From IMG/VR virus record IMGVR_UViG_3300046526_000409, positions 1-64,000 of that record: a DNA stretch of 64,000 nucleotides; one strand, 5' to 3'. Positions 3,405-24,881 of the stretch are shown here, in pieces (positions within the stretch are counted from its first letter, which is position 1; each line of letters opens with the position of its first letter). The stretch comes from a virus. Taxonomy: Duplodnaviria; Caudoviricetes. A model generated the notes under the pieces. It made no database searches. It saw only the letters and a program-made list of their open reading frames with translations, and had not been told where the DNA came from. Made by a program: the position numbers and the translations under genes.

Positions 3405-3546
3405 TAATACGACGGTGGTGCCTTTCGGGGCGATCGTGGGCGGCTGCTCGTGTTCGATCGGGTCCTGTGTCGGTTCGGTCACGGTCTTTGTGGTCGAGTA
3501 AGTGGCCTTGAGGCAGGGGCAGTACGCCTCGGCATACCTTCCGCGC

Positions 3547-21046: not shown

Positions 21047-22780
21047 ATGTGTCGGTTGTCCTTCGCTTTCTTCCCGCCGAATCAGCGTGCGGCCGGCTCT
21101 GATCTCACCATCAGCATCAGCCCGTTGGGTCTCGTTGAACTGTCGGACGAGGACTTTGAAATTCACGGGCCGCGCCTGAACCGCTACGCGACCAACTTCG
21201 CGTTCTACCTCGGGCACCACTGGGCCTACCGTCGGGAAGCCGGCGAACCGCAGATCACCCTGAACTACGTGGCGACCTTCGCGCGCTACATCAACAACTT
21301 CTGCTTCTCCAAGGGCGTGCAGTTCGCCGTACCCAAACGCTACGAACACATCGTTCCGGCCCTGCTCAAGCGGGTCTGGGAGGTCGACAACGACAAGCAG
21401 TCCCTGCTGAACTCGATCGGCGAACAGGGCGGCGTCACAGGCGACTCTTTCGTGAAGGTCGCCTACGAGCCGCAGTGGGTCGACTCGGCCGGCGGTGTGC
21501 ATCCGGGCCGCGTCCGCATCCTTCCCCTGAACAGCGCGCACTGCTTTCCTGAGTATCACCCCCACGACAGAGACCGTCTCGTCGCCTTCAAGCTGCGCTA
21601 CAAATTCTGGACGACCGGCGCCGATGGGGCTCGGATGGTGATGACGTACACCGAGCGGCTGACCGACACGACCATCGACGAGTTCCTCAATGACGAACTG
21701 ATCGACTCCCGCCCGAATCCGCTCGGCATGATTCCCGTCGCGCACATCCGGAACATAGCCGTGTCCGGCTCGCCTTGGGGCCTAGCCGACATCGGCGACA
21801 TCATCTCCATCAACCGTGAGCTGAACGAGAAGATGACCGACGTCTCGGACATCATCAACTACCACGCGTCGCCGACGACCATCATCCAGGGCGCCAAGGC
21901 CACGAACCTGGAACGCGGCCCCCGAAAGATCTGGGGTGGCCTGCCGGAAAAGGCCAAGGTCTACAACTTGGAGAACGGCGTCGACCTGTCCGGGCCTATG
22001 GGATTCATCCAGGTCCTCAAGACGGCGATGCACGAGATCATGGGCGTTCCGGAATCCGCGCTCGGACAGATGCAGCCGATCTCGAATACGAGTGGCGTTG
22101 CTTTGTCAATTCAGTACCAGCCACTGATGAACCGCAACAGCACCAAGCAGATGAACTACGGGCTCGGCCTGAAGCACATCAACGAGCTGGTGCTGCGGAC
22201 CCTGTTCTGCCACGAGCCCGAGACGCTGCTGTACGACCCGTACAGCGACGGCATCATGACCTCCGGCGATCAGCCTGTTCTCCTCGACCCCAACGATCCC
22301 CAGGTTTATCAGGTCGAGTGCGTATGGCCCATGCCGCTTCCGGTCGACAACCTCGTGAAGCTGAACGAAATCCAGGCCAAGCTCGCCATCGGTCTGGAAT
22401 CCAAGCGAAACGCTCTCGTGGAACTCGGCGAAGAGTTCCCCGACGAGCGCTTGGAAGAGATGTTCAGCGAGCAGCGCAGGGACGTTATCGAGCAGGGAGC
22501 CCTGGAGCTTATCAAGGCAACCATTTCCTCTGCTATTCTCCAGATGACTGGAATTGCTACTGAGGAAAGTGGTAATCCAGCCCCGTCAAGCGGGGGAAGC
22601 CCGGAGCAGTCCGGAACTCCCGCTGGCAACGCTCAGACCGGAGTTCTTCCCGGAGCAACCGGGATCGACCTCGGTGTGGACACCAACATGTTGATCAATC
22701 AATTCGTGACCATGGCGTACGGCACCAAGCTGCCGCAGAGCCGGAATTCGGAGGATGCCAGTAACCAGGAGACGAGCTAA
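21047..22780 (+). CDS. Portal protein (SPP1 gp6-like; start uncertain)
   Basis: Size and position; GVTGD, NPLGMIPVAH, SGVAL motifs. Confidence 0.9.
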   Translation: MCRLSFAFFPPNQRAAGSDLTISISPLGLVELSDEDFEIHGPRLNRYATNFAFYLGHHWAYRREAGEPQITLNYVATFARYINNFCFSKGVQFAVPKRYEHIVPALLKRVWEVDNDKQSLLNSIGEQGGVTGDSFVKVAYEPQWVDSAGGVHPGRVRILPLNSAHCFPEYHPHDRDRLVAFKLRYKFWTTGADGARMVMTYTERLTDTTIDEFLNDELIDSRPNPLGMIPVAHIRNIAVSGSPWGLADIGDIISINRELNEKMTDVSDIINYHASPTTIIQGAKATNLERGPRKIWGGLPEKAKVYNLENGVDLSGPMGFIQVLKTAMHEIMGVPESALGQMQPISNTSGVALSIQYQPLMNRNSTKQMNYGLGLKHINELVLRTLFCHEPETLLYDPYSDGIMTSGDQPVLLDPNDPQVYQVECVWPMPLPVDNLVKLNEIQAKLAIGLESKRNALVELGEEFPDERLEEMFSEQRRDVIEQGALELIKATISSAILQMTGIATEESGNPAPSSGGSPEQSGTPAGNAQTGVLPGATGIDLGVDTNMLINQFVTMAYGTKLPQSRNSEDASNQETS

Positions 22781-23568
22781 TGACACTTCCGGCCAACGCC
22801 CCCGCCCCTGCCCCGAACGGCGCCGCCAACGACCAGGTCCTCACCGTCCCGGTCATTCCCGAGCAGCCCAGGGAACCGCAGGCTGACGCTCGCTTCACCG
22901 CCGACGACCTGGAGAAGGTCCGTCGCGAGGAGCGCGAGAAGCTCTACGGGCGTCTGAACCAGCAGGACGAGATCCTCAAGGCCACCAAGGAGGAACTCGA
23001 AGCCGTCCGCAAGGCCCGCGAGGACAAGGAAGCCGCAGAGGCGACCGCCCGCAAGCAGGCCGAGGATGAGGCCGAGGCGAAGAGGCAGTCGGATCTGTCT
23101 GCCAAGTCCCTGCTCAAGGAGCGCGAGCAGGAGTGGGAGAAGCGCTTCACCGATCTCCAGTCCAGCTACGAGCAGGACCGCGAGCTGTTCGCCCGCGAGC
23201 AGGAGTTCCAGCGCCTCCAGAACGTCCGCACTGACCTGCTGTCGCAGGCTGCCGACGACATCGCACCCGAGCTGGCCGACCTCGTCCAGGGCAACACCGA
23301 GGACGAACTCCGCCACTCGGTAGAGCTGATGAAGCAGAAGAGCGCGGCCATCGTCGCCCAGATCCAGCAGACCCAGGTCGCTACTCGGGCTTCGATGCGA
23401 GGCACCGCTCCCACCGGTTACGGCGTCGGTCCGGCCGACTCGGACGCCGGCTACCGCCAGTATTCCGCTGGCGACATCAAGAACATGCCCATGAGCGAGT
23501 ACGCGAAGCTCCGCGGCCAGCTCCTGCCGGCCGCTGGCACCGCCGCGCGTCAGGGCACGTTCGGCTAA
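22780..23568 (+). CDS. Capsid scaffolding protein
   Basis: Charged coiled coil between portal and capsid; C-terminal MPMSEYAKLR. Confidence 0.8.
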   Translation: MTLPANAPAPAPNGAANDQVLTVPVIPEQPREPQADARFTADDLEKVRREEREKLYGRLNQQDEILKATKEELEAVRKAREDKEAAEATARKQAEDEAEAKRQSDLSAKSLLKEREQEWEKRFTDLQSSYEQDRELFAREQEFQRLQNVRTDLLSQAADDIAPELADLVQGNTEDELRHSVELMKQKSAAIVAQIQQTQVATRASMRGTAPTGYGVGPADSDAGYRQYSAGDIKNMPMSEYAKLRGQLLPAAGTAARQGTFG

Positions 23569-23595: not shown

Positions 23596-24881
23596 ATGGC
23601 ATCTGCCATCACCGGTACGCCGCGTCTGTCGGCGTCTCCGACCAACTACTCCGGCACGAACTCGCAGCTTTCTCCGGCCATCCAAGAACTCTGGTCGAAG
23701 GAAATCCTGTTTCAGTCGATGCCGATTCTCCGGTCTCGGGCCGCCTGACGCAGTGATGCGTCAGTGAGAACCACGCTGTATCGGTGAACCCCACCGATTT
23801 CCTCGTAGCATTCATTCGTAGCACGGGGAATACCGAGGGAACCCAACACCTGGGACTCCGTAGAGACTACACGCGAGGCGCCTCCCACAGGATCAGCTCT
23901 TAGGTGAGAAGTGAGCTGAAACTGGAGGCGAAGATATAGTCCGAACTTGCGGGATGGAAAACCGTAAGAGCCAGGCAGAAATGACCTGGCCCCGCATCCA
24001 GCGGGTAACACCAGCGAATTGTCGAGCAGTTCGCAGTCAAGAAGACCGAGCTGGGCGTCAGCCCCGGCCTGGTGATCCACTTCATGCGGTACGACAACCT
24101 CGGCGACGCCTCGCAGCTCGTCGAAGGCGTCCGCATGGAGACGCACGCCCTCACGGCGTCTCAGTTCAGCATCACCGTCTCCGAGCACGGCTACGCCATC
24201 GCGGTTTCGGAGCTGCTGCTCAACTCGTCCTTCGACGACGTGCTCGCGTCCGGCTCCCGGCTCCTGGGCCGGAACATGGCGAAGTACCTCGATGAGCAGG
24301 CCCGCGACACCCTGCTCCAGGCGTCGTCCGTCCTGTACGGCTACGACAAGTGGGCCACCACGGGCAACGCGATCACCCGCGTCTCCCCGTACGACAAGGG
24401 TGCCCCGTCGGCGAACCGTTCTGGCCTGACCGGCAACTACAGGTTCACCTCGGCCCTGGTCAAGGACATGGTCGAGACCCTCGCCACCCGCAACATCCCG
24501 CGTCTCGGTGATGTGTACGTGTGCTTCGTGCACCCGCACCAGTCCCGGTGGCTGCGTGAGGACCCGACCTGGATCGAGTCCTCGAAGTACGCGCAGCCGG
24601 GGGCGTTCTCCCTCGGTGAGATCGGCCGGATCGACGACGTAATTTTTGTCGAGACCACACAGGTCAAGAAGATCGACAACGGCAACGCCACGACCCACGC
24701 GGACGTCTACCAGAGCATTTGCATTGGTGACAACGCCTTCGGTCACGCGATCTCCCTGCCGGTCGAGCTTCGCGATGGCGGTGTCCAGGACTTCGGCCGT
24801 GAGCACCTGCTGAGCTGGTACTCGATCTTCGGTCTGGGCCTGATCACCGACGCCTCGGTCGTCATCGCGGAGACCAACTAA
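23596..24881 (+). CDS. Major capsid protein (N4-gp56-like), two exons 23596-23734 + 24022-24881, 332 aa spliced
   Basis: Joined exons read MASAITG...LWSKEILFQSMPILR-F-EQFAVKKTELG... in frame with ORF 24072..24881; VHPHQ, GEIGR, DFGREH motifs. Confidence 0.93.
23735..24021 (+). ncRNA. Group I self-splicing intron (287 nt, no ORF)
   Basis: Exon ends in U, intron ends in G; P1 CGGU/GCCG; P10 CUCGG/UCGAG; P2 23745-23764; R element GUAGAGACUACACG; S element AAGAUAUAGUCC (23931-23942); P7 GACUA/UAGUC. Confidence 0.95.

Follow-up and report, generated by a model that had tools for sequence, protein, structure and literature searches.

A predicted group I intron without an open reading frame interrupts the major capsid gene of a BRock-like temperate Streptomyces phage

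The single capsid gene of a BRock-like temperate Streptomyces phage is very probably interrupted, within the codon for Phe47, by a compact group I intron that carries no ORF and has helices P1 to P10 with a P3/P7 pseudoknot. The element occupies positions 23735-24021 of the window, by which we mean the whole 64,000-nucleotide stretch of viral DNA that was analysed (positions 1 to 64,000 of IMG/VR virus record IMGVR_UViG_3300046526_000409). Below we describe the comparison with uninterrupted capsid genes, the predicted structure of the RNA and its conservation among relatives, and then weigh other ways of reading the locus. Features of the window are on the plus strand unless a minus strand is given.

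Two capsid reading frames join at a single phenylalanine codon

An ATG at position 23596, which has a Shine-Dalgarno-like AAGGGA nine bases before it, opens an ORF of 50 codons that is closed by the TGA at 23746-23748. From 24022 a second frame stays open as far as the stop codon at 24879-24881, and the longest conventional ORF within it, starting from GTG 24072, encodes 269 amino acids. Between these two capsid frames the G+C content falls from approximately 0.66 to approximately 0.55. Exon 1 (23596-23734) consists of 46 codons plus the T of a split phenylalanine codon and ends ...CTC CGG T, its last base being the U of the U.G splice pair discussed below. The intron ends with G24021, and exon 2 (24022-24881) starts TC GAG CAG, supplying the last two bases of the phenylalanine codon, 285 further codons and the stop. 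When 23734 is joined to 24022 the result is a capsid protein of 332 amino acids with one terminal stop, which is 63 residues longer than the longest conventional ORF of the second frame. The in-frame UGA at 23746-23748, at which translation of unspliced RNA would end, lies 12 nt into the intron, ahead of the catalytic core and within the 5' strand of P2. An early in-frame stop of this kind is also common in classical phage group I introns.

Exon 2 matches the major head protein family PHROG 1357 (phrog_1357; E 7.5e-53), but the match is limited to profile positions 53-344 of 356, indicating that the N-terminus is missing from exon 2. The missing N-terminus is supplied by exon 1, as it is in BRock and Alone3, so that the joined exons would cover the profile over its full length. 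On this basis the product is predicted to be an HK97-fold major capsid protein of the BRock type of PHROG 1357. Directly upstream lie the portal gene (21047-22780; phrog_64 portal protein) and a scaffold-like gene (22780-23568), the latter assigned as scaffold by its position only, and this gene order is the same as in Alone3 and BRock. The window's capsid gene is the only one in the 92-kb genome, and capsid output must therefore depend on splicing, as the original prediction had proposed.

The position of the junction was addressed by tblastn with the 46 residues of exon 1 and the 285 residues of exon 2. In six Streptomyces phage records, among them those of phages BRock, Alone3, LuckySocke, GiJojo and pSt2308, the two exons map onto an annotated capsid gene that is uninterrupted, with exactly one codon between the two matches. 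Exon 1 matches solely at the N-termini of BRock-group capsid genes, at 74-78% identity, and exon 2 shares 66% identity with the capsid proteins of BRock and Alone3. Alignment of the joined protein with these two proteins runs without a gap over the junction (...MPILR-F-EQFAVKK...), and the junction block is identical in both; more generally, the block SKEILFQxMPILR-F-EQFAVKKTELGV is common to the window's capsid and the uninterrupted Streptomyces phage capsids. At the nucleotide level no other cut restores the phenylalanine, and this cut leaves U as the last base of the 5' exon and G as the last base of the insert. Comparison with uninterrupted genes thus places the predicted junction exactly at 23734/24022.

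DNA contigs were also compared over the junction. A metagenome DNA contig of a more abundant, intron-less relative runs from the equivalent of 23734 to that of 24063 with 41 letters between them, which is exactly 287 nt fewer than in the window. The original prediction had given the same boundaries, together with the 50-residue unspliced ORF, the 332-residue spliced capsid and the 63-residue difference, and all of these proved correct; the alignment with intron-less capsid homologs that it had put forward as a check is the gapless one with BRock and Alone3 described above.

The insert has the predicted anatomy of a group I ribozyme

A search with the Rfam group I model RF00028, a further check that had been suggested, held in part: the match is full-length, at 23720-23968 (E 5.4e-6 when a 551-nt region is searched and 2.2e-7 when the genome is searched), but it scores 30.7 bits, under the gathering score of 50 bits, which is a database cut-off and not a biological criterion. 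When the whole window was searched with Rfam at the gathering threshold no match was returned, and the intron emerges with E-value thresholds only. Because its score lies under the 50-bit cut-off, annotation pipelines miss it. The fold energy of the intron has a z-score of -6.1 relative to shuffled sequences.

Helices were placed by hand, guided by the RF00028 alignment. P1 (23731-23743) pairs the exon sequence CGGU (23731-23734) with the guide GCCG (23740-23743), giving the splice pair U23734.G23740 and three G-C pairs. The first five bases of the intron, CUCGG (23735-23739), can be read from the sequence as a P10 guide that forms five pairs with UCGAG (24022-24026); since this guide adjoins the P1 guide GCCG, the ligated exons would sit on one continuous 9-nt guide. 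P2 (23745-23764) has eight pairs (23745-23752/23757-23764) capped by a GUGA loop of the GNRA type. P3 (23771-23776 with 23873-23878) contains one A.A mismatch in the window copy and encloses P4 (23781-23786/23831-23836), P5, which is a simple hairpin (23789-23792/23825-23828), P6 and P6a (23837-23859) and the 5' strand of P7. P7 (23863-23942) is made up of G23863, a bulged A23864 and GACUA (23865-23869), with UAGUCC (23937-23942) as the opposing strand, and is pseudoknotted with P3. It encloses P8/P8a (23880-23929) and J8/7, whose sequence GAAGAUA agrees with the Rfam consensus. There is no insertion between P7, P3' and P8, and the intron consequently has no P7.1/P7.2. Towards the 3' end follow P9 (23946-23952/23962-23968), P9.1 (23970-23975/23985-23990), P9.2 (23991-23995/24001-24005) and the terminal G (omega G) at 24021, and relatives at the same site likewise have a G before TCGAGCA.

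The predicted guanosine-binding portion of P7 comprises G23863-C23942, the bulged A23864 and G23865-C23941, and the last of these pairs is G-C in 69 of 71 family cells. All of the RNA elements named in the original prediction (the U.G pair of P1, P10, P2 with its GUGA loop, P7 GACUA/UAGUC, P8, P9 and the terminal G) could thus be located in the sequence. Points against reading the insert as an intron include the RF00028 score of 30.7 against 50 bits, a P1 of four pairs only, and the A.A mismatch in P3.

The L5 loop (23793-23824) carries a direct repeat of TCGTAGCA at 13-nt spacing and is 24 nt longer than that of the BAKA intron. The repeat looks like a small tandem duplication, and the loop is variable across the family.

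The intron has homologs in Cluster J mycobacteriophages and covaries across a family

Megablast of the region against cultured phages gave no match. In a sensitive blastn search the intron matched 28 Cluster J mycobacteriophage records (BAKA, Optimus and others), in each case inside the intron of the minor tail gene. IMG/VR was searched with a P5'-P7 motif, which yielded 53 contigs, and a covariance model, R1, was built from the window intron and the BAKA intron. Model R1 recovered 88 relatives in 53 viral contigs; it has one match in the window and one in its 92-kb genome, in which this intron is the sole copy of the family.

Over 75 distinct relatives, 94.7% of the proposed pairings are paired, compared with 36-45% when partners are slid, and compensatory changes are found in 60 of the 70 pairs. 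Covariation over the same 75 sequences lies above all 500 shuffles and all slid controls by every measure. The alignment was not fitted to P3 and P7, the pairs of which are mis-nested in model R1, and these mis-nested pairings can therefore serve as a control: they are paired in 34% and 25% of cases, against 85% and 95% for the correct ones (94.8% for P7). Among the remaining helices the proportion paired is 92% for P1, 97.8% for P2, 100% for P4, 99.6% for P5, 95-96% for P6/P6a, 99.2% for P9, 99.5% for P9.1 and 88.3% for P9.2, although these helices were fitted by model R1 and their counts lean towards the model. Compensatory changes occur in all eight pairs of P2, and covariation is seen in four of the six pairs of P7.

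At the splice pair, 57 of 71 family cells have U.G. Pairing in P1 is retained at different target sites, the guides varying with the insertion site. By reading the sequences, a P10-type guide complementary to the copy's own 3' exon can be recognised in family copies at other capsid sites and in BAKA. Homology and shared structure place the window's intron in the BAKA/LittleE intron family of Cluster J mycobacteriophages. The RF00028 match of 30.7 bits, the homology with BAKA, the match to model R1 and the covariation all argue for the 287 nt at 23735-24021 being an ORF-less group I intron, with 39 amino acids as its longest internal ORF, in agreement with the original prediction.

In the sampled contigs the family lies mostly in capsid genes

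Translated exons flanking the family copies were compared with PHROG families. Of 51 such exons (L086-L138), 19 match PHROG 1357 and 18 match PHROG 10, both of which are major head protein families, and the two sets are apparently different members. A few more match other capsid PHROGs, and tail or portal families account for only a handful. These numbers suggest a preference for capsid genes that spans unrelated phage lineages, although the seed motif may bias the count.

Within approximately 20 codons of the conserved N-terminal block of the capsid (W/SKEIL/FQxMPILR/FEQFAV/KK, where slashes mark the sites), family copies were found at four insertion sites, from a comparison of contigs L114, L087, L108, L116, L128, L088 and L096 with window positions 23596-24100. 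In each of these copies the P1 and P10 guides are complementary to the copy's own flanking exons, for example UUCUUG with CAAGAA at the FAV/KK site. Several copies may also share one gene. Contig L117 (5678-7935, minus strand) has five family copies in a single capsid gene, with the exon pieces between them recognised by eye; L102 (1684-4066, minus strand) has five copies and L111 (4440-6409, plus strand) has four, within approximately 2.4 kb. In L096 (7936-8493, plus strand) two family introns surround a 16-nt micro-exon, TCGAGCAGTTCGCGGT; the first occupies the site used in the window and the second the FAV/KK site.

The sensitive blastn search also matched an insert in the Bacillus phage vB_BceM_WH1 (L005, 1283-2590), where a DEAD/DEAH helicase gene is annotated in two pieces, gp015 and gp017, with a 'recombinase family protein' ORF between them. 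The 3' end of this insert resembles P7-P9.2 of the window (77% identity over 81 nt; 48.7 bits with model R1), and the insert is probably an unannotated, ORF-bearing group I intron.

A tentative and rather unlikely generalisation from these observations is that there exists a large, largely undescribed family of ORF-less group I introns of approximately 230-300 nt to which the window's intron would belong, and that this family has specialised in phage major capsid genes and moves to new sites by changing its P1 and P10 guides.

Copies at the same site vary in a manner consistent with preserved folding

Several IMG/VR contigs, and prophages in four Streptomyces genomes, have the same intron at this site, where it measures 282-297 nt. 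In two of the four genomes the spliced frame is intact, at 331-332 amino acids, and the encoded protein is 95-97% identical to that of the window. Identity to the window is 92-98% for the intron, 88-94% for the flanking exon DNA and 77-88% for third codon positions of the exons. Across eight distinct same-site copies 18 pairs are variable, ten of which show compensatory double changes and four of which show any non-standard pair. This variation fits an RNA that must keep folding, and recent horizontal spread could add to the pattern.

One of the genomes, that of Streptomyces diastatochromogenes ATCC 21481 (L148, a 7.7 Mb contig), has a 297-nt intron and, relative to the window, a 1-nt gap in exon 2 that ends the spliced frame after approximately 243 matching residues; this frame break is either prophage decay or an error in the Pilon-polished assembly. 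Separately, in a 2022 data set of 12 million letters, a 25.6-kb contig spans 23300-24500, intron included, at approximately 96.5% identity. Three intron changes are among the differences listed for this contig (33 more exist), and all three fall at unpaired positions. None of the sequencing runs listed as containing this part of the window is an RNA run.

Distribution, mobility and alternative readings

Across the 80 closest capsid loci in IMG/VR, the intron family is present in four and absent from 76, and it is also absent from all six cultured BRock-group relatives. The intron is therefore sporadic, as mobile introns are. The longest ORFs inside it encode 39 (plus strand) and 34 (minus strand) amino acids; neither matches a PHROG family, and no homing endonuclease ORF was found inside the intron, as the original prediction had stated. 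A search of the 92-kb genome that covered the HNH and GIY-YIG nuclease families found neither. There is a sub-threshold match to HNH_3 at 3460-3519 on the minus strand (15.5 bits, E 0.0016), in an open frame of 449 amino acids; it lies 20 kb from the intron, and the genome gave no other hint of a homing-type nuclease in this search. For ORF-less introns the published options for mobility are an endonuclease acting in trans and reverse splicing, the latter being without direct experimental proof according to a review (PMC3984707). Candidate routes of spread for the intron described here are a nuclease in trans, recombination between co-infecting phages, and reverse splicing.

It is improbable, in our view, that the intron has been kept for a benefit to the phage, whether as a guanosine-nucleotide- or folding-dependent checkpoint on capsid synthesis or, for example, by excluding co-infecting relatives. 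All capsid output from this sole capsid gene passes through splicing, most of the family copies reside in capsid genes, which represent two or more distinct PHROG capsid families, and the intron is more conserved than synonymous sites; these observations speak for such a role. However, the capsid bias may partly reflect the seeding of the search, and the conservation is already accounted for either by recent spread or by the requirement that the intron be spliced from an essential gene. The intron is moreover dispensable, since the 76 loci and six cultured relatives noted above do without it. No regulatory element was found in a promoter and terminator scan, which gave no promoter-like site in or near the intron and weak, minus-strand terminator-like matches only. 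Any guanosine nucleotide can serve group I introns as cofactor, at concentrations below those normal in cells, and the need for cofactor is low relative to the available pools. The original prediction had raised a GTP checkpoint; nothing in the sequence bears on it, and most relatives dispense with the intron.

A second alternative, that the locus is a dead relic, with a capsid pseudogene in a defective prophage and no splicing, is less probable still. The IMG/VR record is classed as a provirus, the 1-nt gap in exon 2 of S. diastatochromogenes breaks the frame, and the window copy has its mismatch in P3. Nevertheless, CheckV estimates the record at 100% completeness, the S. diastatochromogenes break may be an assembly error, and relatives with introns of 282-297 nt show protein identities of 95-97%. 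We rejected this alternative on the grounds that all core helices are intact, that the exons are in frame and that compensatory changes are found within the same-site clade.

Finally, the reading in which there is no intron, the locus comprising two separate genes (a 50-residue peptide and a 269-residue, N-terminally short capsid) or being decoded by translational bypassing or frameshifting, is almost certainly wrong and was rejected: gene callers do report the 50-residue ORF as a protein, but the 17 residues encoded by 24022-24071 are conserved with homologs, no Shine-Dalgarno-like sequence precedes GTG 24072, the gap has a group I ribozyme sequence with covarying structure, and a 287-nt translational bypass is to our knowledge without precedent.

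A proposed splicing pathway

Returning to the reading of the insert as a group I intron, we propose that the ribozyme would fold on the late transcript, where a guanosine cofactor would attack after U23734 while the guide GCCG keeps that base in P1. Exon 1, through its newly released 3'-OH, would then attack after G24021, with exon 2 held in place by the adjacent guide CUCGG (P10), and the product would have a CGG-UUC-GAG junction and encode the capsid protein of 332 amino acids. Ribosomes that load on unspliced RNA would be expected to halt at the UGA at 23746, before they reach the catalytic core. From the sequence we infer that the window copy undergoes splicing, and does so unaided; for the BAKA homolog the evidence of splicing comes from infected cells and not from in vitro assays, and a protein helper may therefore be needed. 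The intron is best read as a selfish passenger that is kept splicing-competent by selection, because the capsid depends on splicing.

Discussion

The closest published precedents are found in Cluster J mycobacteriophages. The minor tail gene of BAKA and Optimus has an ORF-less intron of 265 nt, the splicing of which was demonstrated by RT-PCR (Pope et al., 2013, PLoS One 8:e69273; PMC3706429). The window and BAKA introns share 81% identity over 58 nt by blastn and approximately 78% column identity in a pairwise alignment. They have the same helices, core blocks, L9.1 loop and GUAACA tail, both lack an ORF, both follow a 5' exon that ends in U and end in G themselves, and both reside in a late structural gene of an actinophage. 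In P3, P7 and P9 they differ by compensatory changes, with five compensatory pairs in P9. The BAKA intron, however, is in a tail gene rather than a capsid gene and in a phage of Mycobacterium rather than Streptomyces, and the window's intron differs from it in its P1 and P10 guides and in the sequences of P2 and P8, as well as being 22 nt longer overall, with the L5 loop 24 nt longer.

In LittleE the intron, like that of the window, lies in the major capsid gene of an actinophage, and its splicing was established by RT-PCR together with N-terminal protein sequencing across the junction (PMC3706429). The first 156 bp of the LittleE intron are 98% identical to the BAKA intron (PMC3706429), which puts it in the same family. 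Unlike the window's intron it is 820 bp long and has a LAGLIDADG-like homing endonuclease ORF on the opposite strand (PMC3706429), and the capsid family and insertion site are also different; the likeness to LittleE is drawn from the description in that paper. A further capsid-gene intron, in the lactococcal phage Tuc2009, is cited in the same work (PMC3706429).

The classical phage introns (those of T4 td, nrdB and nrdD, SPO1 DNA polymerase, Twort orf142 with its three introns, and the capsid subunit gene of Tuc2009; PMC3706429, PMC3984707) are of the same ribozyme class as the intron described here. They too interrupt conserved parts of essential phage genes, and some are likewise ORF-less. 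In contrast to the window's intron, they lie mostly in genes of nucleotide or DNA metabolism, their hosts are Gram-negative or low-GC, and many carry endonuclease genes. The 'Jug' jumbo phages of the gut resemble the window in having group I introns in essential genes, many of them and of approximately 206 nt, with splicing supported by metatranscriptome reads (Sci Adv 2026; PMC12880540), but they infect Bacteroides and the genes concerned are terL, nrdD and DNA polymerase (PMC12880540).

The original prediction had treated an ORF-less intron in a capsid gene as a rarity. That view did not survive: LittleE and BAKA were published with RT-PCR in 2013 (PMC3706429), and the family is found here mostly in capsid genes. 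Since the window's intron is homologous to the BAKA element, its kind is already known. Literature searches for this family in Streptomyces phages or in actinophages generally found only Pope et al., 2013 and papers that cite it, and no description of the family outside Cluster J. The new elements are the host lineage (temperate BRock-like Streptomyces phages) and the site in the capsid gene.

The interruption has left its mark on sequence databases. The 50-residue ORF of exon 1, including four residues encoded by the intron, can be found in public records as one of ten near-identical sequences that form a cluster, and where it is named, as in one Streptomyces RefSeq genome among others, it is called a 'hypothetical protein'. 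By exact look-up, neither of the truncated exon 2 products, with starts at 24072 and 24087, is on record. The expectation that gene callers would mis-annotate the gene is thus borne out for the exon 1 stub. With the capsid gene split by annotation and the intron missed at the Rfam threshold, phages of this lineage will be wrongly placed by classification on the capsid, and proteome matching will be in error for them too.

Beyond Cluster J mycobacteriophages, the BAKA/LittleE family is thus also present in temperate BRock-like Streptomyces phages, where it provides a clean case of an essential late gene that depends on a ribozyme without an endonuclease of its own. The wider pattern, in which many copies lie mostly in capsid genes with guides retargeted for each site, is a more interesting lead than the single intron. 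Were a capsid-specialised family to prove real, it would constitute evidence from natural populations for endonuclease-independent transposition of the reverse-splicing type, or else for a benefit linked to capsid expression.
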